This document shows, piece by piece, positions 1 through 19,964 of a stretch of 64,000 nt of DNA (positions within the stretch are counted from its first letter, which is position 1; each line of letters starts with the position of its first letter). Under the pieces are notes generated by a model. It was given only the letters and a program-made list of their open reading frames with translations. It searched no databases and had not been told where the DNA came from. The position numbers and the translations under genes were made by a program. The DNA comes from Flavobacteriales bacterium (lineage in GTDB: Bacteria; Bacteroidota; Bacteroidia; Palsa-965). Location: assembly GCA_040377305.1 (NCBI GenBank), contig JBEIPA010000005.1:64001-128000 (forward strand), written 5' to 3'.

Positions 1-841
1 TTTGTTCGCGCCCTAGACGCCATGTACACGAGGAATCAAGACCGTATGCTCCATGAGGAGAAAGTGCAAGGCTTATCCCGATGTTATTTTCAATGTTGTT
101 TCGTCCTGAGATATTCTCATATCCATTTGAAAAAATGAAATCGTTTCTTGATTGATAGCTGATGCGCTCGTACTGGTTGTAAATTTTACGGACCGAGTCA
201 AGCTCAATCTGAGCTCCATCTGTTTCCGCCTGATTTTTCAGCAGTTCATTTTTCAGATCTTGTTCAAACAATTCAATACGGTATTTAACCAACGCCTCCT
301 GCTCCTCAACAGAAGGCAGGTGTACAGCATCACTGAAAGTAAATTGCGGAATGATTGCAATTGCTCCCAGAGCAAAGAGTACAAGGGCAACAATACATTT
401 CAGGAAAATCCTGCGCCACTTCTCTTTATAGGCAGCTTTAATTTCAGCATGAAGGCTTTTGACAATGAATGGGACTCCCTTGTCAGTTGTGACCGCATAC
501 CGATCGATCAGCTCCGGAAAATTTCTCGCAACTTGGCTCGCAACAATGCGATGCCATACAGGGAACGCTAGTTTTCTTCCAGTCTCTTTTTCACGCTGCA
601 GAATGTAGTTGCGTTCAATGATCGGCCATTTGCGGACATAGTCGGGACTGAGTACCAGCACATAAAATTCCGACTTCTCAAGGCCTTCGTGAACTACTTC
701 CTCCACCGACTTTCCAATAGTCAATTTATCACCTACAAAATAGACATTCAGACCTTTAGCTGTTAGACCATTCGCAATTCCCACTGCAATATCGGCCTTG
801 TCTTCAATTGCGTAGGACATGAAAACGTCGTAAGGTCTCAT
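1..841 (-). CDS. TIR domain protein with transmembrane helix and C-terminal (probably extracytoplasmic) domain; truncated by window edge
   Basis: Not in the ORF track because no stop occurs before base 1. Manual translation from ATG at 841: MRPYDVFMSYAIEDKADIAVGIANGLTAKGLNVYFVGDKL...SPDYVRKWPIIERNYIL (TIR box 1 and WxxxE), then the hydrophobic stretch IFLKCIVALVLFALGAIAII, then >110 further residues. Close paralogue of 1382..1999. Confidence 0.85.
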   Translation of the reverse strand, partial: MRPYDVFMSYAIEDKADIAVGIANGLTAKGLNVYFVGDKLTIGKSVEEVVHEGLEKSEFYVLVLSPDYVRKWPIIERNYILQREKETGRKLAFPVWHRIVASQVARNFPELIDRYAVTTDKGVPFIVKSLHAEIKAAYKEKWRRIFLKCIVALVLFALGAIAIIPQFTFSDAVHLPSVEEQEALVKYRIELFEQDLKNELLKNQAETDGAQIELDSVRKIYNQYERISYQSRNDFIFSNGYENISGRNNIENNIGISLALSPHGAYGLDSSCTWRLGREQ

Positions 842-879
842 GAATGGAATTTGATAACAATCCGAAATTGAATACCTGA

Positions 880-1371
880 TTACTCCTTCAGATCAAATCG
901 CTTACTCACGTCTTCATAATTATTCCAGTCAAGATCCGGATTAGCAGCCTTCGCCGAAGAAGGTACTACCACCACTTTGCACTTGACGTTCACACCGTAG
1001 TAGGTATTAGGATCGCTACCCGATGAAGGGCCATCATACAACCAGCTAACCTCAACGTTTCCCGGCGTGTATCGAAATCCCATGTAGTAGTTATGAAGTG
1101 TTCCGTAAACAGTATATGGTACAGATGTCCATACATTAGACTGTGTGCTGTAATAAACCATAACACCCGCCGATTCCAGATTGCTCGCCGTGATTTCAGG
1201 AACGGAAAGATTAATATAGTGATGTGGCGTGGACCAATACCAGGATGTAACCGTAAACGTGTGCGATTTCACCTGCGTCGCGGGATCGACCTGAGCGTCT
1301 TCGCAATTGGTCAAAAAAAGACTGATCATGAAGAACAGCAGAGTAAAGGATGTAGTGTAGACTTTTTTCAT
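880..1371 (-). CDS. Putative lipoprotein, paralogue of 8140..8658
   Basis: ATG at 1371 gives MKKVYTTSFTLLFFMISLFLTNC (signal peptide + lipobox Cys) and avoids overlap with the upstream TIR gene. C-terminus ANPDLDWNNYEDVSK resembles ANPNIDWNSYEQVSK of 8140..8658. Confidence 0.8.
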   Translation of the reverse strand: MKKVYTTSFTLLFFMISLFLTNCEDAQVDPATQVKSHTFTVTSWYWSTPHHYINLSVPEITASNLESAGVMVYYSTQSNVWTSVPYTVYGTLHNYYMGFRYTPGNVEVSWLYDGPSSGSDPNTYYGVNVKCKVVVVPSSAKAANPDLDWNNYEDVSKRFDLKE

Positions 1372-1381
1372 TTTACTTAGT

Positions 1382-1999
1382 TTAATTATTGGGTGATAAG
1401 GGATGTGTATTTCGTATTGCCGGATCTCTTGGCGCTTCTTCAATCAGTGCAAAGTATCCAAACACAAGAAGGAGCAGCGCGACCACCATAAACAACAGAA
1501 TTTTACCGGTTGATGAGTTCGGCATTTTACGTTGTTCTATTTCCCTTCCTCCTTCCGTCACTTTATTTTTTTCACCTTCTTCGCTTTTTCTTTTATGAAT
1601 TGCTTTCTGCAAATGATCCGCTACCGCATCCAATCCCGTATCAGTAGAAGGAGCATAATGATCAATAAGTTCAGGAAAGTGAAGAGCGACATCGTCGTAT
1701 GAAATATTGTTCCAGACAGGGAATACCAACTTCTTACCTTCTTTCTTCTGACGGTGCAGAATATAATTGCGCTCTATTGCTGGCCACTTGCGCCGGTAGT
1801 TATGACTGACAATCAACACGCAGAAATGAGATTGATCCAGACCATTATTAACAGTATCCGAAATCAAATCACCCGAGGAAAGTTTGTCTCCAACGAAATA
1901 CACATTCAAGCCCGATTTTTTTAACCGCTCTGCTATTCCTGCAGCCGTCGGAAACTTGTCTTCAATTGCGTAAGAGATGAATACATCGTATTTTTTCAT
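1382..1999 (-). CDS. TIR domain protein with C-terminal transmembrane helix
   Basis: YDVFISYAIEDK, GLNVYF, KWPAIERNY, VFPVW; C-terminal ILLFMVVALLLLVFGYFALI. Confidence 0.9.
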   Translation of the reverse strand: MKKYDVFISYAIEDKFPTAAGIAERLKKSGLNVYFVGDKLSSGDLISDTVNNGLDQSHFCVLIVSHNYRRKWPAIERNYILHRQKKEGKKLVFPVWNNISYDDVALHFPELIDHYAPSTDTGLDAVADHLQKAIHKRKSEEGEKNKVTEGGREIEQRKMPNSSTGKILLFMVVALLLLVFGYFALIEEAPRDPAIRNTHPLSPNN

Positions 2000-2034
2000 A
2001 GCGAACTTTTAACCAAATGAGTGTCTTGATTTTA

Positions 2035-2565
2035 TCATGCTTCAGCATTACCGCCCAGAACAATTACACCCACACTTTGTGCGTCCTGACCTTCTTCCTG
2101 ATCACGATTAGGTGTGTGCTTATCCATTCGCGCTGGCACAGTTCCATCTGACTCTTTTGCAACCAGATCCAAAACTTTAGCAAGTACAGGATTCAAGCCT
2201 CTTCGTGACGATATCGCATCGCGATCTGATATTGCAGATTTATTTTGCTTCAGCATTTTCAGCGTCACATTGCAAAGCACAAGCAGAATCCTGTTATCAA
2301 TTTTCTTTTTGGACAGTAAAGTTCCCAGTTCTTTTGTCGCCCATTTTTTTGAGATGAACATAGGGCTGATTATCACTATGCCATATCGCGACAGTTTCAA
2401 TGCATTGGTGATAGAGGTTGTAACGGAAGTTTTTTTCTTCAATTCAGCATTCAGGTACCACACACGAAGTCCGCTCTTTTTCAGAGCCAGCACCAGCTCC
2501 TGAACAAATGCGCTATGATCTTCATAGGTGTGAGTAATGAAAACATCATAAAATTGTTGGCGCAT
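2035..2565 (-). CDS. Soluble TIR domain protein (TIR_2 / TcpC-BtpA-like)
   Basis: YDVFITHTYEDHSAFV..L..AL...GLRVWY, SRYGIVIISPMF..KKWATKEL. Confidence 0.9.
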   Translation of the reverse strand: MRQQFYDVFITHTYEDHSAFVQELVLALKKSGLRVWYLNAELKKKTSVTTSITNALKLSRYGIVIISPMFISKKWATKELGTLLSKKKIDNRILLVLCNVTLKMLKQNKSAISDRDAISSRRGLNPVLAKVLDLVAKESDGTVPARMDKHTPNRDQEEGQDAQSVGVIVLGGNAEA

Positions 2566-2621
2566 GAATGTTATCGGTCTTAGGATATTTTATCGATTTA
2601 CCGATAATGAGCAATACATTT

Positions 2622-3182
2622 TTAGATCTTCCCAAGGCGTTTTAGTTCCCAAAAACATTTTGCTGTTGCTGCAATATCTGCAGCAGCGTTGTGTGCCTGC
2701 GGAAAATCTTTTCCAAAAAGTTTGTAATGCAGTTCGGAAAGCTTTGGCCATTTATTTCCAGGAAGCGCACAAAACGAAGTCGTGCTGTGCATCGTGCAAA
2801 TTTTACTTTTTTCTGCTACCGCGTTTGGAATCTTATTTCGGATAAATTCAGCGCCAACAATTTTTTCATCGAAACTCATATTATGAGCAACGAGATACTC
2901 CGCCTCATGGATCAACGACTGAAATTGCTTGAGGACGCTCAAAAGGACTTTTCCTTCTTTCAGCGCCTTCTCGGTTGAGATTCCGTGAATCCTGGAAGCC
3001 GCCAGGGGAATTGAAAAACCATCAGGTTTTATAATATAATCACCCCCTGATATTTTGTTTCCTTGCTTGTCATAAGCCAAATAAGCTAACTGCACCATTC
3101 GTGGCCAGTTATCCACATCGGTTACAGGTGCTTTCCAGCTGGCAGGTAGTCCAGTTGTTTCTGTGTCAAAAAATAAATACAT
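2622..3182 (-). CDS. DEDDh 3'-5' exonuclease (DnaQ-like)
   Basis: ExoI FFDTETTG, ExoII AHNMSFD, ExoIII AHNAAADI. Confidence 0.92.
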   Translation of the reverse strand: MYLFFDTETTGLPASWKAPVTDVDNWPRMVQLAYLAYDKQGNKISGGDYIIKPDGFSIPLAASRIHGISTEKALKEGKVLLSVLKQFQSLIHEAEYLVAHNMSFDEKIVGAEFIRNKIPNAVAEKSKICTMHSTTSFCALPGNKWPKLSELHYKLFGKDFPQAHNAAADIAATAKCFWELKRLGKI

Positions 3183-3207
3183 AACGCTTCTTCGCCTTTG
3201 ATTACGT

Positions 3208-3296
3208 GACGAAATAAGCTAACGCGCTTTCCGGACGAAAAACAAGTTTCCGAAACGCCCAATAAGATTTCTGAATCCTGTGTTTTTCTTTCCCGA
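3208..3296 (-). promoter_or_regulatory. Putative LytTR-type direct-repeat promoter for the exonuclease-TIR operon
   Basis: Minus strand TCGGGAAA (3296-3289), TTCAGAAA (3275-3268), TTCGGAAA (3254-3247) at 21-bp period; 29-nt gap; then TTATTTCGTC (degenerate TAnnTTTG -7 box). Confidence 0.55.
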
Positions 3297-3301
3297 TCAA
3301 A

Positions 3302-4048
3302 TCAGATCATGGAAAATCTCCGATGTACTTCGTCCCGATAACTATCACTGGTAGGAACCTCTGCTTTTCCTATTAAAAGCATATTCCCTTTGATTGCAGT
3401 TACTTTGTCAATATTGACTGCGAACGAACGGTGCACGCGCATAAGAAGCGGGTGGTCGAATTTTTCCTGAAAAGCCTTCAGACTGTACGTTAAAGTAAAC
3501 TTCCGACTCATCGTGTGAATGTGGCAATATGATCCGCCCGCTTCAATCCAAAGAATATCATCCAGATTAATCCGGTAAAAAGTATCATCATCCTTTACAA
3601 GGATGCGATCCTTGAATGGAAAAATGGTTTCTGTAGTTTTCTCATTCTTTACCGGAAGAGCAATTTTCTTACTGCTCGCGTTATAAAACGCAATCTCAAT
3701 TGCTATCAGTAAATCCTGCGCTTTGAATGGCTTCAGCAAAAACGCTGCGGGATGCGTGTGCTTGGCACGCTCAATAGTCTTCTCATCGTGAAGGTCTGTG
3801 AGATAGATAATGGGAATAGAATAATTTGCGTTGATCCGTTCTGAGGTCTGTATCCCATCCATTTCTCCGGAAAGATGAATATCCATCAGGATCACATCCG
3901 GCTGCTTGTTCTTGATTTCTTCAAGCGCCGCCTCACCCGATGTCACTATCTTCTTTACAACATAACCGGCCGTTGTGAGTGTTTCAGCAACCGACTCGGC
4001 TATTATGACTTTATCTTCAACAATTAAAACTGAAACAGGTGCTATCAT
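3302..4048 (-). CDS. LytTR-family response regulator
   Basis: REC domain (VLIVED, PDVILMDIHL, FLLKPF) plus LytTR domain (ILWIEAGGSYC, RVHRSFAVN). Confidence 0.95.
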   Translation of the reverse strand: MIAPVSVLIVEDKVIIAESVAETLTTAGYVVKKIVTSGEAALEEIKNKQPDVILMDIHLSGEMDGIQTSERINANYSIPIIYLTDLHDEKTIERAKHTHPAAFLLKPFKAQDLLIAIEIAFYNASSKKIALPVKNEKTTETIFPFKDRILVKDDDTFYRINLDDILWIEAGGSYCHIHTMSRKFTLTYSLKAFQEKFDHPLLMRVHRSFAVNIDKVTAIKGNMLLIGKAEVPTSDSYRDEVHRRFSMI

Positions 4049-6300
4049 TTTACCTCTGGTATTTCCAATGTTACAATTGTGCCGCGCTCATCCGAATGCG
4101 TGAGTAATGTTGCTTTGAGCTCGCGCGAAAATAGCTGAATCAATCGCAACCCGAATGATCTGTTAAGCTCTGCTTTATTACCCGCAGGAATTCCGGTTCC
4201 GTTATCGGAGAAACGAAGCAGCTTGCCGGTGAACTCAATATGAAGTGTTGCATCGTCATTCTTCTTCAGAACATGCTTGAACCAGTTACTGATGACTTCA
4301 TTGCAAACGAAACCAAGACTCAGCGCTTTATCTGCATCCAACTCAATAGATGCAACGTCTTTGCTGATGTTCAGTTCTGCCGCGGCATAACCGTAAGACT
4401 GACAGAGATTATCAATCAATGCCTCAATGTAAGTACGCATGTTGACCTGCGATCCGACATGGTCGCCATAAAGTCCCTGATGAATCAACAACATCGCCGT
4501 TAATCGCTGATCAATCTCCTGCATAAGTTCTGCCATTGCCGGATCCTGGATACGCGATTGCTGAAGTTCCAGCAGGCTGGAAAGCACCTGCAGATTATTT
4601 TTAATACGGTGATGCAACTCACTCATCATCGTTTGCTTCTGCTCTATGATGGTTTGCTTTTGTTCAATAATCACCTTGCTTTGACGGAGTGCAAGACGAC
4701 GTGAACGGATAGCAACAAACAACAATGCTACTACCACAAGAAGCAATGCGGCTCCAACTACGAGCGAGTAAATCAATGTATGCTGCCGCTCAACAGTTGC
4801 TTCCTTCACCTTGTCTCGTTCATTCAGTAAAACGATTTCGTGTTCTTTGCTCTCACTGTCATACTTCACTTCCATTTCTGTAATTGCTTTCTGCTTTTCT
4901 TCATTTAATACGGAGTCCTTCATTGATATGAAAAGGTCCATGTACAGCAAAGCGGAATCTGACTGTCCCTCCGTCAGGAAAATATCTGTTGTAATCTTAT
5001 AGTTATCCAACAGATATTTTTTTGCGCCAATCTTTTCTAACCGGCTACGCGCAGCCTTGAGATGTTCCAATGCATCATGGTTCTTGCCCATCGCCTGATA
5101 TAGCCTGCTCAACTTGTTTAACGTAAGAGCAACTAGCTTGGGGTCATCTGCAATCGATTTTAACTCAAGCGCCTTCTTATAATATGCTTCCGCTTTGTCG
5201 AATTCCTTTTTGTGATAATATGCTTCGCCCAATAGGTCAACAGAACTAGCGATGAAGTCTGAATCACCTAATTCATTCTTAATAAGTAGTGAACGATTTA
5301 AATAACTGATAGCGGTATCGTAGTCTCCCAACAGAATATAAGCCTGCCCAAGATTCGTAAGGGATCCGGCAATCCCTCTTTTATTCCCAATTGAATCACG
5401 AAGATGCAATGAGCGTGTATGATATTCTATTGCCCTTCGCGGCTCCTCTACCTCACAATACAAATTGCCAATGCTATTATAACAGGACGCAAGTTCTTTT
5501 GCATATTGAATCTGCTCGAAAAATGGAGCAGCAAGTAACAGATGATGTAACGCACTATCGTAGGAACCTTGTTCCCGGAATACTATTCCAAGATTAAGAT
5601 TAAAGATTGCGAGATTTGTATCATCGTCAAGTCGCTCGGCAATTACAAGTGCTTTCTGATACGAATGGATACTGCGGAGATAGTCTTCGTTATCAGAATA
5701 AACCATCGCTATGTTGCTATAGCAAGCCGCCATCGCAGAGGAGTCATGAAGAGCTGTGTCGTACTTAATTTCCTCATTCAAGTATTTCAAAGCGTTTGCA
5801 GAATCGCGCTCGATCAGGTAGTAAATACCCAACTCCTGCAGAGCAAAAGCAATGTCCTTGTCGCTTCTGGCGTTTGTGCCGATCAGTAACGCTTCTTTCA
5901 TCGAAGCAACTGCAGAATCAGGTCGCTGTAGTTCGAGGTAACACTTTCCCGTTTTTATCAAGGCCCTTACCTGCTCATGAACAAGATTAGCTTTCTCCGC
6001 CTGATTAGCCGCATGAATGTAATAATAGAGCGCTGAATCAAAATTTGCTTGCGTGCTATAATAAACTCCCAATGCATTCAGCGCTCTGATCCTGTTATTG
6101 ACATCGCCTGATTCAGATGACACCGCTCTTACTTCCTGCACCCACGCTGCAGTGTCAGTTGTGCTATCCAGCACGGGCAGGATCGACTCTGCGGTTTGAT
6201 TGTTGCACGAAAAATAATTCAGGCTAACCAGCAGAAGGAATACAAAACCTCCAGCCGATTTCGCAATCGGAATGCATCTGGTTCGCAGATAGGCAGACAT
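4045..6300 (-). CDS. TPR-repeat membrane sensor histidine kinase (HisKA_2 type)
   Basis: N-terminal hydrophobic segment, many TPR repeats, TM helix, H-box ELHHRIKNNLQ, N-box NEVISN, DNGTG and SFGL; 4-nt overlap with the regulator. Confidence 0.93.
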   Translation of the reverse strand: MSAYLRTRCIPIAKSAGGFVFLLLVSLNYFSCNNQTAESILPVLDSTTDTAAWVQEVRAVSSESGDVNNRIRALNALGVYYSTQANFDSALYYYIHAANQAEKANLVHEQVRALIKTGKCYLELQRPDSAVASMKEALLIGTNARSDKDIAFALQELGIYYLIERDSANALKYLNEEIKYDTALHDSSAMAACYSNIAMVYSDNEDYLRSIHSYQKALVIAERLDDDTNLAIFNLNLGIVFREQGSYDSALHHLLLAAPFFEQIQYAKELASCYNSIGNLYCEVEEPRRAIEYHTRSLHLRDSIGNKRGIAGSLTNLGQAYILLGDYDTAISYLNRSLLIKNELGDSDFIASSVDLLGEAYYHKKEFDKAEAYYKKALELKSIADDPKLVALTLNKLSRLYQAMGKNHDALEHLKAARSRLEKIGAKKYLLDNYKITTDIFLTEGQSDSALLYMDLFISMKDSVLNEEKQKAITEMEVKYDSESKEHEIVLLNERDKVKEATVERQHTLIYSLVVGAALLLVVVALLFVAIRSRRLALRQSKVIIEQKQTIIEQKQTMMSELHHRIKNNLQVLSSLLELQQSRIQDPAMAELMQEIDQRLTAMLLIHQGLYGDHVGSQVNMRTYIEALIDNLCQSYGYAAAELNISKDVASIELDADKALSLGFVCNEVISNWFKHVLKKNDDATLHIEFTGKLLRFSDNGTGIPAGNKAELNRSFGLRLIQLFSRELKATLLTHSDERGTIVTLEIPEVK

Positions 6301-6379
6301 ACAATAAGCTTTGAGAAAACTGATTTACACACTTCTAAGGTAGATTAAATAATCATGACAATTTCCGCAATCTTTCATG

Positions 6380-6415
6380 AAAAAAACGGGACTTTGCATA
6401 CAGCGAAGTCCCGTT
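6380..6415 (-). terminator. Intrinsic terminator after 6431..6817
   Basis: Stem ACGGGACTT/AAGTCCCGT followed by a T-run on the minus strand. Confidence 0.75.
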
Positions 6416-6430
6416 GAATTCTACATCACA

Positions 6431-6817
6431 CTAGGGTGCAATCAGCGTGTCGATACGCACGACTTCAGAAGAAAACGTAAGGTTCACGTTTTTCGGAAGA
6501 TAGCCCGTTCTTGTGAAGTTCAGTACGTAAGTACCGGATTCAAAACCACCCATGCAATACTCGCCTGATGAATTTGTAGTCGTCTGATTCTGCACAACTC
6601 CACCTTGCAGCAGCTTCACCGTAACATTATTGATCGGTGTTCCGGTTACAGTTAATGCATGACCTCTCACAATGATTGGTTCTTCATCGCAATCCGGTGA
6701 AATCACACCGGTGAAACAGGTTGCACTCTTTGAACACTTTTCAGAAATAGAAGTGGTCGGGTGAAATGTTCCGAAAAGGAATACAATCACGCTTACGACC
6801 TTAATGATATTTGTCAT
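6431..6817 (-). CDS. Secreted carboxypeptidase-regulatory-like (prealbumin-fold) domain protein
   Basis: Signal peptide, then GTPINNVTVKL...TTTNSSGEY....GTYVLNFTRTGY pattern. Confidence 0.75.
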   Translation of the reverse strand: MTNIIKVVSVIVFLFGTFHPTTSISEKCSKSATCFTGVISPDCDEEPIIVRGHALTVTGTPINNVTVKLLQGGVVQNQTTTNSSGEYCMGGFESGTYVLNFTRTGYLPKNVNLTFSSEVVRIDTLIAP

Positions 6818-6845
6818 GTTGATTTAGTATTAAGGTTTGACATAC

Positions 6846-7060
6846 CCGGTTGGCCCGTGCGCACCATGCACACTGTCGGTTCCGGATTTTAAGCGGGACA
6901 TTTCTCCGTTCCTGTTGCGCAGACCAGCGATCAGCTTTATCGCTTTTTGCCTATCCCTGAGCAAAGAGTCTTTGCAACAGGAGCGGAGTGTATTTATCAG
7001 TTCAGTATCATGAAACCGGAACTTCGATTTATCCTTTCGGATCGGGTAGTCGCCCGTGCG
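6846..7060. ncRNA. Candidate structured RNA/leader in the divergent intergenic region
   Basis: 15-bp stem 6904-6918/6974-6988 enclosing two inner hairpins; outer helix GTTCCGG/CCGGAAC; ATCC-TTTC-GGAT hairpin. No family recognised. Confidence 0.3.
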
Positions 7061-7218
7061 ATTCAGTTCACTTTATCATTTCAACTGCACTGATGTTGTG
7101 ATCAGCAACACGGTAAATTTTTACATAAAGGATAACCGGCCGCGAAACTTTTCCCGGTAACGTCCGGCGATCTTCCGGCGATGAACTAGAATTTCCGGCG
7201 ATGTTGTACTTCCGGCTT

Positions 7219-7286
7219 TTAGGAAAGAAAAACGAGTGATTCGGAAAATAAATTCGGTTACGGCTTGCCCGAACCATTCATTTGTC
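7219..7286 (+). promoter_or_regulatory. Putative LytTR-type direct-repeat promoter
   Basis: TTAGGAAA (7219) and TTCGGAAA (7240) at 21-bp period; 29-nt gap; TTCATTTGTC (7277). Confidence 0.5.
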
Positions 7287-7300
7287 GGCGAAATCCGGTT

Positions 7301-8143
7301 ATGAAGTTCAGCAGGGACATATTGAAAAGACTGCTTTCTGAAATTCAGAATGCGATCTATATGGATGTAACCAGTGGAAATGGTGCTGCCGTAAATGCTG
7401 CCTTGGGTGCGAAATACAAAGAATATCGCAAAGTTCCCTATCCGATTACCAATCCGGAATTTGTTTATCGCACCGTCAAGGCAAAACTGAACGATAAGAA
7501 AAGAAAGGGTAAAGAACTTCCATTGCTCACCGGCAACTTTGAAATTTTAGTACATGCTCTGGGTTACAAAGGAATCCCTGACTTCATTAATGGAAAGCAT
7601 CCCGCTGTCAGCACAGATCTGAAGGGTTGTGAAGGTTTCTGGTATAGCTACGTACGTTGCAATTCAGGACAACCTTTTGTGTTGCGCGCTCCAGTGGAGA
7701 TCGTTGTGCGATATCGCGACGTTGAAATGGAATTGAGAGGAAGCCGAAGAACTTTCAAAGGTAAAATGAAGCTCGAAGGTGATTGCATCTTTTGCCTGCT
7801 GGAAAGTGGCGACACAAAAAACCTTCACTTGATATTTAAAACCGGTCTCGAATCAACACCTAATGTCTTACAAGGCGTTTTCTCAGGACTGTCAACTGCC
7901 AATGATCCAATCGCAGGTCGAGAAATATTGATACGTCAACCCGGTATGGATGATTTGAAGAAATTGACAAACGATCGCTTGTCCATTGACAAACTACTCT
8001 CGTCCGGAACAGAAGACGAGAAAATAATTGCACGTTATTTCAGTAACGTCGATGAAAATATTCTTAAAGCCGGGCGCAGCAGCAATTTTGAAATTACAGA
8101 TCTCATTAAACCAGAACAGAAACCTAAAACCAGAAAAAAATGA
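7301..8143 (+). CDS. Hypothetical protein: helical (possibly HTH-like) N-terminus plus beta-rich C-terminal domain
   Basis: ATG at 7301. LVHALGYKGIPDF segment, then GFWYSY-initiated alternating beta strands; 4-nt overlap with the next gene. Confidence 0.75.
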   Translation: MKFSRDILKRLLSEIQNAIYMDVTSGNGAAVNAALGAKYKEYRKVPYPITNPEFVYRTVKAKLNDKKRKGKELPLLTGNFEILVHALGYKGIPDFINGKHPAVSTDLKGCEGFWYSYVRCNSGQPFVLRAPVEIVVRYRDVEMELRGSRRTFKGKMKLEGDCIFCLLESGDTKNLHLIFKTGLESTPNVLQGVFSGLSTANDPIAGREILIRQPGMDDLKKLTNDRLSIDKLLSSGTEDEKIIARYFSNVDENILKAGRSSNFEITDLIKPEQKPKTRKK

Positions 8144-8658
8144 AAACAGCTAAAATTTACATCCTGCTTGTCACTATTGTTTCGCTTGTCACTGCCTGCA
8201 AAAAAGAAGGGCCTGCCGGTCCTGCCGGAAAAGATGGAAATGCGAATGTTATTTCATCAAACACGCTTACGCTGAATAATTGGATTACGGTTTACGATGA
8301 TGGCACAGAGTTTACGTACTCTTCGAATCTTACCTGGGGCGAGATCACACAAGAAGTGCGCGATGGTGGATTGCTCATTACATACCTGAAAGACAACACA
8401 ACATCAACGTGGTATGCTATGCCTTATTCATACGCAGGTGACGGTTATGGGTACACATTCAACTACGATTTCAATATCGGTACTGCGAATATCTATTATG
8501 AAGGTTACGACAATTCAGGATCGCCAGGAGCCAATGCGCTGAATGGACTCTTTACAATTCGTTTAGTTGCCGTTCCTCCTGCAATTCGTGAAGCGAATCC
8601 GAATATCGATTGGAACAGCTATGAACAGGTTAGTAAACTGATTACTGCACAGGAGTAA
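8140..8658 (+). CDS. Lipoprotein with short collagen-like linker
   Basis: LVTAC lipobox, GPAGPAGKDGNANV; paralogue of 880..1371. Confidence 0.85.
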   Translation: MKTAKIYILLVTIVSLVTACKKEGPAGPAGKDGNANVISSNTLTLNNWITVYDDGTEFTYSSNLTWGEITQEVRDGGLLITYLKDNTTSTWYAMPYSYAGDGYGYTFNYDFNIGTANIYYEGYDNSGSPGANALNGLFTIRLVAVPPAIREANPNIDWNSYEQVSKLITAQE

Positions 8659-8715
8659 TATTATTTATATCCAAAATACAATCCAACGCATCAGCCAGTT
8701 CTAATAGCTCAGTTC

Positions 8716-8943
8716 ATGGAATACAAAGCAGTTTCAATCGTCCCCGTTCAAGGTGAAAAAGAAGATGGGCGTCACGTCGCTCAGAATCTGGAAGACCTTC
8801 TGAAAAAGTATCACGCCGAAGGTTGGGAATATGTGAGAGTAGAAAGCCTGCAGGTATGGGTTAATCCCACTGGCGGATGCTTTGGTTTTGGACAAACGCC
8901 GGGTTACTACGCAGCGCGGCAAATGGTGATTTTCAAAAAATGA
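8716..8943 (+). CDS. DUF4177-like small protein
   Basis: MEYKAV...LEDLLKKYHAEGWEYVRVE...MVIFKK pattern. Confidence 0.7.
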   Translation: MEYKAVSIVPVQGEKEDGRHVAQNLEDLLKKYHAEGWEYVRVESLQVWVNPTGGCFGFGQTPGYYAARQMVIFKK

Positions 8944-9248
8944 AATTTCTGTTGACGATACCGATCCGGATGTACTGGAAGCTGATTCGTATTTCGCGCA
9001 GGCGACAGTGCATTTTCAAAGTTTCATGTTCGCAGCACGTTCACTCTACAGTAGTGAAAGACGGATTACTCTGCGGGATCAAAGCACTCGTATACAGAAT
9101 GCAAACATGCAGACCGGGTTATGAAATAATCTCACTGAAACAAGAGAACACATTGTTGCTTGTTCTGAAGAACGGAAATGTCCTGCAGGAGAAGGAAATA
9201 TCGGAATCACTTATAAGGCAACAATGTTTCTCCATCGACACGAATTAA
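8940..9248 (+). CDS. YidD-like (haemolytic-domain) protein
   Basis: ATG at 8940 overlapping the upstream stop; YWKLI..RRQCIFKVSCS...G...G......R...CRPG Cys pattern. Confidence 0.7.
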   Translation: MKFLLTIPIRMYWKLIRISRRRQCIFKVSCSQHVHSTVVKDGLLCGIKALVYRMQTCRPGYEIISLKQENTLLLVLKNGNVLQEKEISESLIRQQCFSIDTN

Positions 9249-9258
9249 ACTGTATCCA

Positions 9259-9621
9259 ATGAAAAAGAACATTCTGATTTTTGCAATTACACTGTCATCA
9301 CTTGTATTCATTTCCGCTACGGTATTAGACGGCAGTCCAACGGAACACGAAACGTATTGCCAGATCATCGGCACGCGTCAAATGTTCTCCACCAAACTGA
9401 CCATTACAGTTGACTACGGTGAGCCCCGAAAATGGTTTTCGGATCAGCGCATAAAAGATGAAACCGGAAAAATTCAGAAGTTCAACAGTATGATCGATGC
9501 GATGAACTACATGGCTGACCAGGGATGGACTTTCGTTTGCGCGTATCCGGTTACGCATGATAACTCGGATGTGTATCATTATACGTTTAAGAAGGTGGTG
9601 GTGGAGACGGAGGCGGAGTAG
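9259..9621 (+). CDS. Exported hypothetical protein
   Basis: Signal peptide; VDYG...FNSMIDAMNYMADQGWTFV motif. Confidence 0.8.
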   Translation: MKKNILIFAITLSSLVFISATVLDGSPTEHETYCQIIGTRQMFSTKLTITVDYGEPRKWFSDQRIKDETGKIQKFNSMIDAMNYMADQGWTFVCAYPVTHDNSDVYHYTFKKVVVETEAE

Positions 9622-9683
9622 GTTGTGCTCTTTATTATTCTCCTTGAAATCAAAAATTCATATTCAATCTAAAAGCTGAAAGT

Positions 9684-10385
9684 ATGTCAAGATGTACAGC
9701 ACCAGTTCATGGTCATCGCACAGCAAGCGGAGCGGCAAACTGTCCCGCATGCAGCGGCCAGTATGGCAGATATAATTCATACTCATCCTACCCATCATCA
9801 TATTCACCGCCTTCATACAGTTCAGGAAGCCGTGGTAACAGCAGCGGAAACTCCAGAAGTATGAAACCGCGTTGGTCTAAGGCAGGTTCAACACTTTTAT
9901 ACTCGCCTGCTGAAATAAGAACGCTTACACCAGTTCGTGAGAATGTTGAGAAGCGATCGTCCATCCCTGACCTACGCGATGTTTTTCTTTGCCACGCTTG
10001 GGATGATCGAAAAGGAGCTGCCAAAGAGTTGCATGATCTGCTTGAGTCCCGAGGTATCACGGTTTGGTTCAGCGAAAAGGATGTTTCGCTTGGTTCGTCA
10101 TTGCTTCGCGAAATCGATAAAGGGTTGGCAAAGTCTCGAGTAGGAATAGTATTGGTCACACCTTCGTTTCTAAGTCGCGTCATAGGAGAAGGCATAGCCG
10201 ACAAAGAGCTTTCAGCGCTATTAGCACGTGACTTACTCGTTCCTGTTATGCACAATACAACATTTGAAAAATTACGCGAGGTCAGCCCTCTCCTAGGCTC
10301 CAGAAGCGGCCTAAGCACACTGGAGGAATCAATGGCAGACGTTGCAGCCAAATTAGCGGAACTAGTATCAGTACAGTCTCAGTGA
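9684..10385 (+). CDS. TIR domain protein with Cys/His N-terminus and Ser/Tyr/Gly-rich linker
   Basis: RDVFLCHAWDDR, VWFSEKDV.LG..L.REIDKGLAKSRVGIVLVTP, DKELSALL. Confidence 0.92.
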   Translation: MSRCTAPVHGHRTASGAANCPACSGQYGRYNSYSSYPSSYSPPSYSSGSRGNSSGNSRSMKPRWSKAGSTLLYSPAEIRTLTPVRENVEKRSSIPDLRDVFLCHAWDDRKGAAKELHDLLESRGITVWFSEKDVSLGSSLLREIDKGLAKSRVGIVLVTPSFLSRVIGEGIADKELSALLARDLLVPVMHNTTFEKLREVSPLLGSRSGLSTLEESMADVAAKLAELVSVQSQ

Positions 10386-10394
10386 ATGGGACGC

Positions 10395-10430
10395 AAAGGT
10401 TCTATCCTCTGAAGGTTAAACCTTCGAAGG
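10395..10430. repeat. Intergenic 36-bp repeat, copy 1
   Basis: AAAGGTTCTATCCTCTGAAGGTTAAACCTTCGAAGG; 31/36 identical to 11020-11055. Confidence 0.8.
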
Positions 10431-10501
10431 AGCGACTTTTCGGACTTAGATTAGAACAATTACGAAGACATAAAGAAATATTTCTCTTCCCAATAAACGA
10501 C

Positions 10502-10879
10502 ATGACCATGCAATTGAAGCAATACATATTATTAGCGCTCCTAACATTCCTGATAATTTCATGTGAGTCAAAAAGTTCATTCGAAGAGCGTCGTGCTGCT
10601 GCCAAGATAATCCTCTCCTCCAAATGCGCCGTAGTTGTTGACGCGTCCACTGAGTTTATCAAAGATAAACGTCCGATTATTGGTGCACTGGTTGCAACCG
10701 TTGTTGAATCAAAATGCGATTGTATTACAGATTCTTTAGCTGTTCAGTTCGCCAATGAATACGACTTGCAGACAATTAAAGACATGGAGCACGAACCCAT
10801 CGAATCGCTTGCAGTAATATTAAACAAATGCATGGATAAGAATGACAAGGTGGTGGTCGACTGTGTGACAGAGTGGTAA
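10502..10879 (+). CDS. Cys-rich putative lipoprotein
   Basis: ATG at 10502 (or 10508), LIISC lipobox, KCDC motif. Confidence 0.7.
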   Translation: MTMQLKQYILLALLTFLIISCESKSSFEERRAAAKIILSSKCAVVVDASTEFIKDKRPIIGALVATVVESKCDCITDSLAVQFANEYDLQTIKDMEHEPIESLAVILNKCMDKNDKVVVDCVTEW

Positions 10880-10930
10880 AGTCGATCGATCCAACGCATT
10901 TTTGGGGCAAATTCAACCCAGTTTACAACG

Positions 10931-11001
10931 ATGAAATACAAAGCAGTTTCAATCGTCCCTGTTCACGGCGCAAAAAAGATTGTCGTCACATTGCACAAAA
11001 C
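10931..11001 (+). pseudogene. Frameshifted 5' remnant of a DUF4177-like paralogue
   Basis: MKYKAVSIVPVHG vs MEYKAVSIVPVQG (8716); after a 1-nt deletion reads DCRHIAQN vs DGRHVAQN; upstream ATCCAACGCAT also shared. Confidence 0.8.
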
Positions 11002-11019
11002 AACAAAGAGCTAATATAA

Positions 11020-11055
11020 AAAGGTTCCATCCTTTGAAGGTTAAGGCTTTGAAGG
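11020..11055. repeat. Intergenic 36-bp repeat, copy 2
   Basis: AAAGGTTCCATCCTTTGAAGGTTAAGGCTTTGAAGG. Confidence 0.8.
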
Positions 11056-11081
11056 GCTTTCTTAAATCATCGTCATTAAAG

Positions 11082-11170
11082 TTCACAAGGAACGAGACGC
11101 CGCTCAGAAAGTAAAACGCATAGTTCAGAAAGTAATTATGGAACCGCGCGTAAATGATATAATCTTCGTC
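11082..11170 (+). promoter_or_regulatory. Putative LytTR-type direct-repeat promoter
   Basis: TTCACAAG (11082), CTCAGAAA (11103), TTCAGAAA (11124) at 21-bp period, with a perfect 11-mer TCAGAAAGTAA twice; 29-nt gap; AATCTTCGTC (11161). Confidence 0.6.
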
Positions 11171-11190
11171 TGTAAACCAAATTTAAAATC

Positions 11191-11409
11191 ATGGAACGGT
11201 ACAGAAATTTATCAGGAGATTCGGGTGTCCACTCCTTCGAAATTGGCGTGGACTACATCACGGTCAAATTTTCAGGAACAGCGCGAACATACACTTATAG
11301 TTATAGAAAAGCAGGTTCCGCTCATGTCGAGGCAATGAAACTTCTGGCTCAAAACGGCAGTGGTCTCAATAGCTACATCAATCGAAATGTGAAGAATTCA
11401 TACGACTAA
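11191..11409 (+). CDS. Small conserved hypothetical protein (KTSC-like)
   Basis: Y.NLSGDSGV..FEIG.DYI.V.F...Y.Y...G...VE.MK.LA..G.GLNSYI pattern. Confidence 0.8.
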   Translation: MERYRNLSGDSGVHSFEIGVDYITVKFSGTARTYTYSYRKAGSAHVEAMKLLAQNGSGLNSYINRNVKNSYD

Positions 11410-11424
11410 TTACCTCCTCTTAAA

Positions 11425-11805
11425 ATGAGAGTCTACCTGACCATTTTTTTATTGACCATCACGTGTATTACGAAAGCGAATTTCTGGTCATCATACGAAT
11501 GCACGCTGAGATATGGAATAGACAATGGATGGTATGCGTCGACGGTTGATTATACAAATTATGGTAACGGTACATACGCTACGTATTCGCTTGCAGTTTA
11601 CGTCGAGTATAACCGGGTAACCGTTATTGACTTTGGAAATGGAGGTTCAGTGCACTCTGGAATCAACAATGAAGGCTACTACTATAGTGGTGGATATTTG
11701 AACTTTGAATACCAATATGGAACCATGAATATCGTTGCTGCAACTACGACAGTTACGGTTATGCAGGATGGATCGAGCAGGTATTATAAAATCCGGATAG
11801 AATGA
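11425..11805 (+). CDS. Exported Tyr/Gly-rich hypothetical protein
   Basis: Signal peptide, beta-rich 126-aa ORF. Confidence 0.7.
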   Translation: MRVYLTIFLLTITCITKANFWSSYECTLRYGIDNGWYASTVDYTNYGNGTYATYSLAVYVEYNRVTVIDFGNGGSVHSGINNEGYYYSGGYLNFEYQYGTMNIVAATTTVTVMQDGSSRYYKIRIE

Positions 11806-11870
11806 TTTGTGAAAAAAGACGGCTACAGCTAACAAGAAGTTAATTGGTTAACCTCTAATATAAAATACAA

Positions 11871-12191
11871 ATGAGCAAATGGGCAGATTACCTAATTTCT
11901 GGAGTGTGGTTCACTACCCAGAATAATTCCAAACGCATTTCGCATGTTATGTTACATGCCGATAGTGATAGTGGTTTTGAACACGGTATCAAGACATCAG
12001 AATCGGAAGTCATCAAGTTGCTGAAAAATAAAAAAAGTGTAATAACGATAACATGGAATTATCCAGGTTGGCAGAAAGGTGCTGCCGTAACCTATGAAAC
12101 TGTCCAGGGCCAGGAATACTTGCGGACAGTAGCTAACGCAACAACCAAAGACAATCTGGACAATTCCATTTCAATGCAGGCTATTGCCTGA
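11871..12191 (+). CDS. DUF3892-like protein
   Basis: KWADYLIS.V ... GA.V ... YLRT.AN.T.KDNL. Confidence 0.8.
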   Translation: MSKWADYLISGVWFTTQNNSKRISHVMLHADSDSGFEHGIKTSESEVIKLLKNKKSVITITWNYPGWQKGAAVTYETVQGQEYLRTVANATTKDNLDNSISMQAIA

Positions 12192-12240
12192 TCCTTTGAA
12201 AGGTTTGCTCTATTAAAATAAGTTCTAAAACTTAGATGAC

Positions 12241-12495
12241 TTGAAAGCCCTATTTGTTTCACTCTTTGGTCTTTTTGCAGTAACCGCTATTATCACTCAT
12301 ATCTGGACAACGATTATTGGTTTTGATGAAGGAGGATTCTGGGGTGGCGTTGCCACGCTTTTCCTCCCATTTCTTTCAGAAATTTATTGGACGTTCAAAA
12401 TGTATGGGGAGAACAATGTGTATGCGGTAACTGCATTAATTCATTTAATCCTGGCGATTCCATTTTCGATGGTTGATAGAAGCGAAAGACATTGA
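12241..12495 (+). CDS. Small multi-TM membrane protein
   Basis: Three hydrophobic segments; TTG start. Confidence 0.65.
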   Translation: MKALFVSLFGLFAVTAIITHIWTTIIGFDEGGFWGGVATLFLPFLSEIYWTFKMYGENNVYAVTALIHLILAIPFSMVDRSERH

Positions 12496-12584
12496 TCAAC
12501 TTCAATCGTATCTGTAAGGTTCCACCCTTACAATGCTACCTTGAAAAAGAACCCTAACGCCATGTCGAGGTTCTGATCATCATC

Positions 12585-12767
12585 GTGTTTACTTACGACT
12601 ACAAGTTGAAGGAATTTTATAAAGTGCCGTGGAGTGTTGCGCAAAAATTGATTGAACGCAGAGGCGGACTTGTTCAGAAAGAAGTGCTGAGGTGGAAGAC
12701 GATTGAAAAGTATCGGGAGGAGATTGAGGCGTTGCCGCGGCAGGAGGTGGTGGGGTTGTTTAGGTGA
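12585..12767 (+). CDS. Short hypothetical ORF, possibly a 3' gene remnant
   Basis: 60 aa, weak GTG start, G-rich tail like other operon-terminal genes here. Confidence 0.35.
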   Translation: MFTYDYKLKEFYKVPWSVAQKLIERRGGLVQKEVLRWKTIEKYREEIEALPRQEVVGLFR

Positions 12768-12965
12768 TTGCGCGTAACATCCACTGCAAGTGTGTCAGCT
12801 TGTAAATGGCAGGATGTCAGAACAGTCCTGACATTTATTGCTTAGAACAGAATTTTTGTCTGTGCAAAACATCATACCAGTTCAAATTCCAAGCATTGAG
12901 CAGAACCCATAAAAAACGGTACGATTATTCCGGAGTCCCGTGTGTTAAACTAAAAAACAAATACA

Positions 12966-13289
12966 ATGACTCCTACATTTCAAATTCTTACTGGCAACGA
13001 CCAGAAGATCTACTTCCGACTGGTAGCTGCTAACAATGAGATTATTCTCAGCAGCGAAGGGTACAACTCACGACAAGGTTGCCTCAATGGTATCGAGGCG
13101 GTACGGACGAACGCACCCTACAACACTCGTTATCAAACTAAAGTCGCGTCCAACTGGAAAAACTACTTTGTGCTACATGCGAGTAACGGCGAGATTATTG
13201 GCACAAGTCAACTATATGATTCTGCTCAGGGATGTGCGAAGGGAATTCTTGCAGTAATCGATGCTGCTCCTAAAGCTATTATTAAATAA
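12966..13289 (+). CDS. YegP / DUF1508 family protein
   Basis: Two repeats: YFRLVAANNEIILSSEGY...C.NGI and YFVLHASNGEIIGTSQLY...C.KGI. Confidence 0.92.
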   Translation: MTPTFQILTGNDQKIYFRLVAANNEIILSSEGYNSRQGCLNGIEAVRTNAPYNTRYQTKVASNWKNYFVLHASNGEIIGTSQLYDSAQGCAKGILAVIDAAPKAIIK

Positions 13290-13298
13290 CTTATTTCT

Positions 13299-13685
13299 AT
13301 GACACGCATTTTACCTCAAATTGAAGCACTACAGGAAATACCATTTTTTCACCGAACTTATGCTAAGGCTATACTTGGTCACATTGCCAACAAAATCGCT
13401 GAAACAGATGAGATCGAAGTGGGTACTTTTAGCAATGGCGAGCAGTCGGGCTCATTTATCGGATTTGATACTGATGACTTTGAGGATACAAGAATAGAAC
13501 TTCGCTACGATCATACGGAGTTCTTTCTAACCGTTGAAGATAATTACGATGATATGCGGTGCAGCACATTTGAATATAGAATACCTGAAGATTCAGAACT
13601 GAGCGGAATGATTCCAGCTGCTGTTGTTTCTCGATTATTTCAAGTTGCAAATTCTGATGAGTTTGAACTCGAGGAAGAAGAATAG
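13299..13685 (+). CDS. Acidic hypothetical protein
   Basis: 128-aa ORF 9 nt after the YegP-like gene. Confidence 0.65.
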   Translation: MTRILPQIEALQEIPFFHRTYAKAILGHIANKIAETDEIEVGTFSNGEQSGSFIGFDTDDFEDTRIELRYDHTEFFLTVEDNYDDMRCSTFEYRIPEDSELSGMIPAAVVSRLFQVANSDEFELEEEE

Positions 13686-13720
13686 AAAGTAAAGTTTGAA
13701 TCTCACCTACTTTCGCTGAT

Positions 13721-13750
13721 TATCCGTTTACAAACGTTTGTAAACGGATA
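13721..13750. repeat. Perfect 30-bp palindrome
   Basis: TATCCGTTTACAAACGTTTGTAAACGGATA equals its own reverse complement. Confidence 0.9.
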
Positions 13751-13900
13751 CGACCTCATGATGCAATGCTTTACTGACTAATATTTTTAGTTTTTTAAAA
13801 ATATCTATTCGATTTTAGACCAAAAAACAGGTTCGGTATAACGCTGATCAAAACCTATCCATAGTAGTTGTAATTTGTCACAGCTAATACTAACATCATC

Positions 13901-15784: not shown

Positions 15785-15795
15785 CATTTTAACCC

Positions 15796-16974: not shown

Positions 16975-16985
16975 TAAACTTTAGT

Positions 16986-17708
16986 TTAAGTAAGAAAGAG
17001 CTCCCTACCTTCTATTTGATTCCAATACTTATCATTCAGCGAACTGCACAGCTTCTTGGATTCATCCAAGCGCTGACCGACAAGTTCATTTTTATTTTCA
17101 ATCAGCTCTTTCCAGTGATTATAGTAAATATGTTTGAGCGTAAATAGTACAAACTTTAGAGGAGTAATGAGTTTATCACACGGCAAGCGCACCTGATTGC
17201 CGTTTCCAATGTGAAAATGCGCAGCCGAATGAATACACGGCCTGTACGAAGCTTCATCGGTATCATATCTCATCGACAATGAACTTGCATTCAATTCAGC
17301 TTCTATAGTATACTGCTCATGTTCTTCTAAAAATGTTTCACCTAGAATATCATTCGTTTCAGATTCAACTATTCCGTCCTCGCGAAGTTTATTTAGATAT
17401 TCATTGTAAGAAATGTAGTACTGAGGGTTTTGAAAATACGCGTAACGGATAGCTGGTAACTTTTCGAATTCTTGAATTTTGAATTCGAATTGAAAAAACG
17501 ATTCGTCAGACAGTAAAAAATCAAAATCAAAATTTCGCTTACCAGTGCTATAGCAATCAACGTAATCAGCACGCTGAGATGCAGCCTTAAATTCATCTGA
17601 AACTCCGTCGGAATTAATAATTTTCACTCCACGCATTTTGAGGAGGCCAAATTCCTTAAGGATTTCTGCAGACTCTTCAATTGAAATCTTGAATGCGGCC
17701 TCTGTCAC
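16986..17708 (-). CDS. DUF2290-family protein
   Basis: DFLLSDESFFQF, RYAYFQNP, RYD....HSAAHFHIG...RLP; coupled (4-nt overlap) to the helicase end. Confidence 0.8.
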   Translation of the reverse strand: MTEAAFKISIEESAEILKEFGLLKMRGVKIINSDGVSDEFKAASQRADYVDCYSTGKRNFDFDFLLSDESFFQFEFKIQEFEKLPAIRYAYFQNPQYYISYNEYLNKLREDGIVESETNDILGETFLEEHEQYTIEAELNASSLSMRYDTDEASYRPCIHSAAHFHIGNGNQVRLPCDKLITPLKFVLFTLKHIYYNHWKELIENKNELVGQRLDESKKLCSSLNDKYWNQIEGRELFLT

Positions 17709-19873: not shown

Positions 19874-19910
19874 CGCTCTTGATATTTCAATTATTATAAA
19901 TTAACTATTT

Positions 19911-19918
19911 CAAATATA
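19911..19918 (-). promoter_or_regulatory. -7 promoter box for the helicase operon
   Basis: TATATTTG matches the Bacteroidota TAnnTTTG consensus. Confidence 0.5.
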
Positions 19919-19948
19919 ATCAATACAATCAGGGAGGATTTGTTTAAC

Positions 19949-19964
19949 CGTTTGAAAACGGATA
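19949..19964. repeat. Half-copy of the 13721 palindrome
   Basis: CGTTTGAAAACGGATA vs CGTTTGTAAACGGATA (15/16). Confidence 0.65.

Follow-up and report, generated by a model that had tools for sequence, protein, structure and literature searches.

To our knowledge, Thoeris, TIR-STING, SPARTA and the TIR effectors of CBASS and Pycsar all respond to infection sensed in the cytoplasm and, as described, none of them possesses a dedicated signal-transduction regulator. Several ThsB genes per system are a known trait of Thoeris. Proteins of the AbTir type carry their TIR domain at the C-terminus, behind a coiled coil, and LytTR regulators such as AgrA and ComE have sites spaced with a period of about 21 bp. 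The text of the 2025 Thoeris survey preprint proposes about 29 Thoeris effector types. Here we analyse a 64,000-nucleotide (nt) stretch of a Flavobacteriales bacterium (assembly GCA_040377305.1, contig JBEIPA010000005.1, positions 64,001 to 128,000, corresponding to G000:C6:64001-128000 in our coordinates; hereafter the window) whose left end carries an operon with three TIR genes. The locus would couple TIR enzymes to the membrane, to periplasmic domains, to lipoproteins and to a sensor kinase and a regulator of their own. We propose, with moderate confidence, that it represents a rare module of Bacteroidota in which a LytTR regulator paired with the kinase would activate the TIR operon as well as a divergently transcribed gene, here called X, the TIR proteins would cleave NAD+ and X would act downstream.

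A first-pass annotation of this DNA had singled out five genes at the left end of the window, encoding a DEDDh exonuclease, a soluble TIR protein (TIR1), two membrane-anchored TIR proteins (TIR2 and TIR3) and a lipoprotein (lipo1). The conserved partners of the TIR genes lie to the right of this group: the kinase and the regulator (3302-6300), X (7301-8143) and the predicted repeat operators that they share. Eleven related loci were taken from a genome collection and 80 from a metagenome collection, and their open reading frames (ORFs) were compared with the window proteins. The neighbourhood was judged in the nine loci that extend 3 kb or more upstream (L004-L011 and L014; L003 and L015 end too early). 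In eight of them (L004-L006, L008-L011 and L014) the TIR genes are immediately preceded by orthologues of the kinase and the regulator, and X is present and divergently transcribed in all nine. The TIR genes thus co-occur with kinase, regulator and X in the nine judged loci, partners that the first-pass annotation had missed. In the ninth locus, L007, the kinase/regulator pair is accompanied by a TIR1 homologue and an exonuclease fragment, and this group is 4 kb away from the TIR3 homologue. Eighty other loci sharing the TIR domain only contain no regulator (0/80) and a single kinase-like fragment (1/80, L071), although most of them are short contigs and therefore a weak control. The linked regulators give E-values from 1e-75 to 1e-107 (L004-L008 and L014), compared with 1e-46 for the best paralogue in the window's genome. 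Scores so far beyond that of the paralogue indicate that they are orthologues and not random members of a large family.

The kinase is composed of an N-terminal signal or anchor, a periplasmic TPR region of about 470 amino acids (aa), a membrane helix (505-539), a HisKA_2 domain directly after it (4e-23, Pfam) and a HATPase domain. This architecture is that of FimS (8e-35). The periplasmic position of the TPR region and the placement of HisKA_2 straight after the membrane helix suggest that the input of the kinase is extracytoplasmic. The kinase gene overlaps the regulator gene by 4 nt, and the two products, a HisKA_2 and HATPase_c kinase and a receiver-LytTR regulator encoded in one operon, constitute a LytTR two-component system. 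Directly upstream of the kinase gene lies Y, which encodes a small secreted protein and has homologues at the equivalent position in six other loci.

The 119-nt gap between the regulator stop codon and the exonuclease start codon contains three to four direct repeats of the motif [T/C]TC[G/A]GAAA, spaced by 19-21 bp. Direct repeats of TTCGGAAA, 21 bp apart, precede both the TIR operon and X. The regulator-to-TIR gap holds repeats with mostly exact 21-bp spacing in the window, L004, L005, L006, L008 and L010. Motif density reaches 12/kb in ten homologous intergenic regions compared with 0.79/kb on that strand in the remainder of these loci, a 15-fold difference. The paired motif occurs four times in the 5.18-Mb genome, two of these at this locus, and a reversed control pattern occurs twice. 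The repeat pair facing X is located at -82/-61 from the likely X start in both the window and L005 and at -90/-69 in L014, and 21-bp-spaced variants precede X in L004 and L007. A scan for sigma-70 promoters and terminators returned no more sites than shuffled sequence. The position of the repeats suggests that the regulator controls two divergent units, one running from the exonuclease through TIR1, TIR2, lipo1 and TIR3 to a small Cys-rich lipoprotein and the other composed of X and a second lipoprotein gene, lipo2.

The distribution of X follows that of the C-terminal ectodomain of TIR3. The ectodomain is found in seven of 24 other genomes of the same genus and X in six, all of them ectodomain-positive (without the unpublished genome G412, 6/23 and 5/23), counts to be read with the caution that same-genus genomes are not independent and that the matches may overlap loci fetched from the genome collection. 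The seventh ectodomain-positive assembly is 71% complete, and X is absent from the 17 ectodomain-negative genomes of the genus (0/17). Across 400 genomes sampled over the phylum, neither the ectodomain profile nor X gave a match (0/400 for each). Other carriers belong to distinct lineages of Bacteroidota: Fulvivirga sediminis, a Cyclobacteriaceae metagenome-assembled genome (MAG), a MAG labelled Chitinophaga pinensis and a Chryseobacterium MAG. We therefore regard the module as a sporadic accessory unit with which X travels. X has 127 relatives of 189-390 aa, none of which carries a Pfam domain. For X itself, searches of Pfam, PADLOC, NCBIfam and PDB sequences gave no match, the Atlas gave only hypothetical Bacteroidota clusters, and there is no similarity to the ectodomain (hhalign probability 1%). 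X is the best candidate for a downstream receptor or effector.

The TIR proteins were assigned with the Pfam profiles TIR_2 (PF13676) and TIR (PF01582) at the curated cut-off. TIR1, TIR2, TIR3 and TIR4, the last a more distant gene to the right of X, reach 56.0, 58.6, 51.4 and 59.0 bits with TIR_2 (cut-off 28), the E-value of TIR3 being about 1e-13 to 2e-13. A hydropathy scan predicts one membrane helix in TIR2 (residues ~160-190), one in TIR3 (~142-171) and none in TIR1. Each helix is preceded by a K/R-rich stretch and followed by an acidic one, a charge distribution suggesting that the TIR domain is cytoplasmic and the C-terminus outside (N-in/C-out). The periplasmic tail of TIR2 is about 20 aa long. 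For TIR3, the layout put forward at first pass, a cytoplasmic TIR domain, a single helix and an extracytoplasmic domain, was recovered both by hydropathy and by AlphaFold2 (AF2), with an outer domain of 200 aa. The model, built on a 15-sequence alignment (pLDDT 88.3), shows the TIR domain at 1-122, a long membrane helix and an alpha+beta ectodomain. The WxxxE glutamate read earlier in all three proteins (WATKE, WPAIE and WPIIE) likewise stands in the alignment, and of the 68 family members that cover this column, 66 have Glu. The solved structures closest to the TIR domain of TIR3 are AbTir, PdTIR, BtTir and TcpB/BtpA (Foldseek E-values of 3e-9 to 1e-7, 28-35% identity). The AbTir entry 7uxu gives 3e-9 with 32% identity and 8g83 is also among the closest, the AbTir entries being titled NAD+-consuming or solved with an NAD analogue. 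The catalytic-type glutamate and these closest relatives suggest that the module TIR proteins may cleave NAD+.

A maximum-likelihood tree was computed for 77 TIR domains, with outgroup rows picked by similarity to TIR3 and with the L007 TIR1 homologue left out by the domain filter. All 22 module TIR domains form one clade (support 95/91), and TIR4 falls outside it. This clade divides into two sister clades, the soluble TIR1 type (8 rows, 100/99) and the membrane TIR3 type (96/82). TIR2 of the window groups with TIR3 of the window and its closest relatives (100/91), which suggests that TIR2 is a truncated TIR3-type copy; a direct comparison of the two gives an E-value of 1e-45. Members of the TIR1 family have a linker rich in Lys and, at the C-terminus, a short conserved G-x-I-x-L-G-G motif, and two TIR1 homologues have a membrane helix instead. 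The sister relationship of soluble and membrane clades is compatible with, and no proof of, receptor, co-receptor and adaptor roles of the three proteins. A second TIR3-type copy in L003 (L003:4894-5991) is split into two ORFs of 95 and 265 aa and is probably a frameshifted duplicate. An ORF of 864-870 aa is intercalated between the TIR1 and TIR3 homologues in L003 (L003:1077-3689) and L008 (L008:5382-7976). It is absent from the window and has no match in Pfam, PADLOC or NCBIfam.

The ectodomain modelled alone (80-sequence alignment) reaches a pLDDT of 95.2 and a pTM of 0.89. This model has no Foldseek match at E <= 1e-3, and with the full TIR3 model both Foldseek and VIA-align returned TIR matches and no ectodomain fold. 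The best VIA-align match of the ectodomain is the intermembrane-space domain of ARC6 (5gtb_A, Z 7.0, 100 residues aligned, rmsd 4.7), followed by a VirB8 domain (7aed_B, Z 6.8), and no chain reaches Z >= 8. The resemblance to an NTF2/VirB8-like fold is weak and may serve as a lead only. The family is a rare one: among 5.8 billion protein clusters, a word-indexed search yielded only six other full-length TIR3 relatives, and an exhaustive HMMER search of 1.84 billion proteins yielded 82 representative clusters with the ectodomain. Nearly all of these proteins are 365-380 aa long with the ectodomain at the C-terminus, and Pfam TIR_2 is present in 66 of the 83 family members scanned. A tblastn search with TIR3 gave 136 plasmid and 6 phage records, which match the TIR domain only, none of them (0 records) with a query coverage of at least 80%. 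The nearest plasmid TIR domains (up to 39% identity) belong to proteins annotated as DUF1883 domain-containing, and many of the 136 records are from Enterobacteriaceae. The six phage records are temperate phages with related TIR genes.

The five ORFs at the left end of the window, all on the minus strand, are separated by 56, 35, 10 and 38 nt in the order exonuclease, TIR1, TIR2, lipo1, TIR3 (Table 1). The co-oriented and tightly packed set described at first pass is therefore real, with gaps of 10-56 nt and with Pfam matches above curated cut-offs for the exonuclease and the three TIR proteins. The extension of the contig to the left that had been advised was carried out (left flank L002, where the coordinate minus 12000 equals the window coordinate). 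It completes TIR3 to a protein of 369 aa (L002:11732-12841, that is G000:C6:63732-64841).

Table 1. Features of the TIR module and its neighbourhood (window coordinates)
Feature	Position	Strand	Basis or remark
TIR3, TIR / membrane helix / ectodomain	1..841 (first 280 codons in the window)	minus	ORF and TIR_2
lipo1, lipoprotein, 163 aa	880..1371	minus	Signal peptide and LTNC lipobox; no Pfam match
TIR2, TIR and C-terminal membrane helix, 205 aa	1382..1999	minus	TIR_2 1e-15; hydropathy
TIR1, soluble TIR, 176 aa	2035..2565	minus	TIR_2 7e-15; no membrane helix
DEDDh 3'-5' exonuclease, 186 aa	2622..3182	minus	RNase_T 1e-14; first gene behind the repeat operator
Repeat array, predicted LytTR operator and TIR operon promoter	3228..3296	minus	3-4 direct repeats
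Response regulator, receiver and LytTR	3302..4048	minus	Response_reg 8e-23, LytTR 2e-18 (Pfam)
Sensor histidine kinase	4045..6300	minus	Periplasmic TPR, HisKA_2, HATPase
Y, secreted, 128 aa, CarboxypepD_reg-like domain	6431..6817	minus	PF13620 3e-10; signal peptide
Repeat pair before X, predicted second operator	7219..7247	plus	TTAGGAAA, 13 nt, TTCGGAAA
X, cytoplasmic, 280 aa, no recognised family	7301..8143	plus	Divergent transcription
lipo2, lipoprotein paralogue of lipo1	8140..8658	plus	Start overlaps the X end by 4 nt
TIR4, fourth TIR protein, 233 aa	9684..10385	plus	TIR_2 9e-16; 1 kb downstream of X

The N-terminus of lipo1, MKKVYTTSFTLLFFMISLFLTNC, is a signal peptide ending in Cys; its likely start, the ATG at 1371, was set by family alignment. 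The family is rare, with only 24 relatives among 5.8 billion clusters, several of them on contigs equal in length to those that carry TIR3 relatives. The Atlas gave hypothetical clusters only, Pfam gave no match, and hhalign of the lipoprotein against the ectodomain gave 0.2%. A lipo1 family gene directly follows the gene for a short TIR-membrane protein in all four loci that carry one (the window, L005, L014 and L097) and adjoins the ectodomain gene in only two of the four. The lipoprotein had been presented at first pass as the periplasmic partner of the receptor. This rare family is indeed linked to the module. A pairing of lipo1 with the short TIR protein fits at least as well as the one proposed with the ectodomain. 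lipo2 is 27% identical to lipo1 (E-value 1.6e-14), and its orthologue follows X in L014. The small Cys-rich lipoprotein is encoded directly downstream of TIR3 (L002:11349-11657, minus strand; motif VYIT-TG-KYH...C...CK-C-PP) and has homologues at the same site in L005, L008, L014, L096 and L097. A small cytoplasmic ORF of another family follows TIR3 in L008-L010.

The exonuclease is a well-preserved member of its family: RNase_T (PF00929) gives 55.8 bits (cut-off 24), the PADLOC DEDDh model 4e-26, and the DEDDh motifs are intact (FFDTETTG, HNMSFDE and HNAAADI). It had been counted as a member of the module. However, among the related loci it is found only in the window and in L007, and none of the 24 same-genus genomes contains a homologue at E <= 1e-10 (0/24), so it was rejected as a core part. 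It is an accessory gene inserted in the window's genome. Its closest relatives outside the genus (48-52% identity) are located within frames of 1424-1507 aa in L108-L111 (G435, G436, G111 and G012). The very length of these open frames suggests that the exonuclease domain is there part of a large protein.

Genes for ThsA, a CD-NTase, an Argonaute or a STAND protein were not identified within the 12 kb to the left of the window (Pfam and PADLOC) or the first ~20 kb to the right, in agreement with the first-pass annotation, which had seen none of these genes in the window. A ThsA, CBASS, Argonaute or STAND partner just left of the window, which might have made this a known system, was thus looked for in these 12 kb and not found. 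In the same regions (L002 1-12000 and window 1-20000) no ThsA-type effector, whether SIR2-SLOG, Macro-TM or another described one, gave a Pfam or PADLOC match, with the restriction that the PADLOC-DB is that of 2023 and that Thoeris effectors of types V-XI may fall outside its models. The earlier statement that the locus does not fit a named system agrees with the PADLOC scans.

In the window's genome a defence island flanks the module on both sides. On the right, a YidD-like ORF (8877-9248) and a secreted 120-aa ORF (9259-9621) lie between lipo2 and TIR4 on the same strand, and TIR4 overlaps a lipoprotein-like ORF (10382-10879). The N-terminus of TIR4 is Cys-rich and of low complexity, and TIR4 is not conserved in other loci. 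An OLD/AriA/GajA-like AAA_15 ATPase gene (13901-15784) follows, with a partner of 392 aa belonging to no family (15796-16974). Next to a DUF2290 gene on the minus strand (16986-17708) is a gene matching the PADLOC 'Helicase' model PDLC03002. The latter is split into two ORFs (17705-18043 and 18044-19873) and may be a broken gene; rpoC (20193-24545) comes after it. On the left are two neighbouring genes (L002:9351-11018, that is G000:C6:61351-63018). One, on the minus strand, encodes a protein of 376 aa that has four hydrophobic segments and matches PD-(D/E)XK weakly at its C-terminus; the other encodes a 154-aa protein matching PADLOC models of methyl-directed restriction enzymes (2.5e-9). Neither is conserved in related loci. 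Further left (L002:5316-6852) are two tandem DUF4379 treble-clef zinc-finger proteins, next to a helix-turn-helix (HTH) protein with similarity to the N-terminal part of PADLOC PD-Lambda-2_B (7.5e-20), and beyond them (L002:2305-5298) a 997-aa BNR/sortilin protein bearing a T9SS sorting tail.

These elements may be assembled into the following scheme. The TPR domain of the kinase would sense a cue from the envelope or the periplasm and the kinase would phosphorylate the regulator, which would then bind the 21-bp-spaced TTCGGAAA repeats and activate both the TIR operon promoter and the X promoter. The 200-aa periplasmic domain of the membrane TIR protein would take a second extracytoplasmic input and lead to clustering of the TIR domains in the cytoplasm; in some genomes the pairs of short TIR-membrane protein and lipoprotein could share in receiving this input. 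The soluble TIR protein of the sister clade would join the cluster. Clustered TIR domains would cleave NAD+, with depletion or an ADP-ribose-derived signal as the outcome, and X might serve as the downstream receptor or effector. The most likely role would be an inducible response to a threat at the envelope, phages being the first candidate. Defence is the least secure step of this scheme.

Several observations weigh against it. The membrane TIR gene of L007 is not downstream of the regulator, and the TIR1 homologue of the same locus carries a Gln instead of the catalytic-type Glu. Repeat copies in the regulator-to-TIR gap are degenerate in L009-L011 and also in L007 and L014. No repeats are found upstream of X in L009-L011. 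X lacks any recognisable domain, and that it acts as an effector is guessed from its co-occurrence with the TIR genes and from the predicted operators that both share. To this are added the weakness of the control loci and the relatedness of the same-genus genomes mentioned above. Finally, the other loci are flanked by genes that look like housekeeping genes by Pfam (an MFS transporter, an aldo-keto reductase, a peptidase M1 and GatB), and the argument from the defence island therefore holds for the window's genome only.

These flanks are also what would be expected if the same regulation served a physiological purpose in envelope stress, dormancy or competition between bacteria, the NAD+ products of the TIR proteins being second messengers and phages playing no part. 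The kinase has the architecture of FimS, a regulator of surface structures, and the secreted protein Y together with lipo1, lipo2 and the small Cys-rich lipoprotein suggest envelope biology. Moreover, two-component control is unusual among known TIR defence systems: the terms 'histidine kinase', 'response regulator' and 'two-component' have no occurrence (0) in the text of the 2025 Thoeris survey preprint, the supplementary tables of which could list such operons. However, the sporadic distribution (7/24 in the genus, 0/400 in the phylum) and the composition varying from locus to locus are typical of accessory conflict systems, the module of the window's genome is embedded in a defence island, and the PADLOC models that score best with the module TIR domains are defence-candidate and ThsB models. 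Such a circuit is in our judgement rather unlikely, and less so than the two readings that follow.

The affinity with ThsB could alternatively mean that the locus is a Thoeris-like cluster of several ThsB genes whose effector is absent or goes unrecognised, with the kinase, regulator and X as unrelated neighbours. The three TIR proteins match the PADLOC ThsB model PDLC00417 (6e-17, 4e-14 and 4e-13, over the TIR domain only), and TIR4, 6.5 kb away, matches the ThsB model PDLC00424 over practically its full length (2e-116, positions 1-230 of 234). The multiplicity of ThsB genes in one system would be no obstacle. Nor would an unfamiliar effector be, with some 29 types proposed in the preprint text. 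This possibility appears quite unlikely: no ThsA-type effector was found in the 12 kb to the left or the 20 kb to the right, SIR2_2 matches occur solely on other contigs (C10 and C30), and the kinase, regulator and X are conserved beside the TIR genes across several Bacteroidota lineages with shared predicted operators, unlike chance neighbours. Still less probable is that the TIR domains are non-catalytic adaptors that scaffold a membrane receptor in the manner of TLR and MyD88 and are coupled to the two-component system by protein contacts. The ectodomain, helix and TIR layout with a soluble sister TIR protein does recall a receptor-adaptor pair, and VIA-align of the TIR3 model ranks the animal adaptors TIRAP (Z 17.6), MAL (15.8) and MyD88 (15.4) high. 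However, 66 of 68 members retain the catalytic-type Glu and the solved TIR domains closest by sequence are bacterial and NAD+-consuming. In addition, since HisKA_2 directly follows the membrane helix, the kinase has no cytoplasmic sensor domain for contact with a TIR protein.

The preferred reading remains that of a TIR operon and X under the command of a kinase-paired LytTR regulator. It can be extended, tentatively and with considerable doubt, to a bacterial counterpart of Toll-like receptors, in which a single-pass membrane TIR protein reading the periplasm would recruit the soluble TIR protein and an NAD+-derived product would signal to X, as a new effector family, the whole being armed by a two-component system that senses the envelope. 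If true, this would be the first TIR immune system of bacteria to sense outside the cytoplasm and to be gated at the level of transcription. Should the module be a defence system, bacteria would be able to arm TIR immunity from an envelope signal such as phage adsorption or cell-wall damage, and the repertoire would gain an effector family (X) and an ectodomain fold, both of them new. The predicted operator makes the regulation directly testable.

In the full-text literature that was searched, with subscription journals and closed supplements outside its scope, we found neither a TIR module with a linked LytTR two-component system nor a bacterial single-pass TIR receptor described. Term look-up in a 2026 domain-centric survey and in a TIR divergence survey found no such module either. 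Thoeris, which combines a ThsB TIR sensor with a ThsA-type effector (types I-XI), shares with the module small TIR proteins with a catalytic Glu, often several per locus, matches to PADLOC ThsB models, a nearby partner gene of another family (here X) and a sporadic distribution. The module differs in having no known effector family in the scanned flanks, in its two membrane-anchored TIR proteins, one with a periplasmic domain, and in its own histidine kinase and LytTR regulator with shared predicted operators. AbTir, PdTIR, BtTir and TcpB (BtpA) are the closest solved structures to the module TIR domain. However, the latter is N-terminal and followed by a membrane helix, and proteins of the AbTir type possess neither a periplasmic domain nor a linked two-component system. 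The resemblance to animal Toll-like and IL-1 receptors is one of layout, a single-pass protein whose TIR domain is cytoplasmic and whose other domain faces outward, accompanied by a soluble TIR paralogue. As receptors the two are not homologous: in the module the order is inverted, with the TIR domain N-terminal, LRR and Ig domains are absent and the catalytic Glu is kept. Finally, LytTR two-component systems (AgrCA, ComDE and the FimS/FimR-like systems of Bacteroidota) have in common with the module a receiver-LytTR regulator, a FimS-like TPR kinase and direct repeats that recur about every 21 bp ahead of neighbouring operons, predicted targets in the module, whereas the regulon predicted here is composed of TIR proteins and X.

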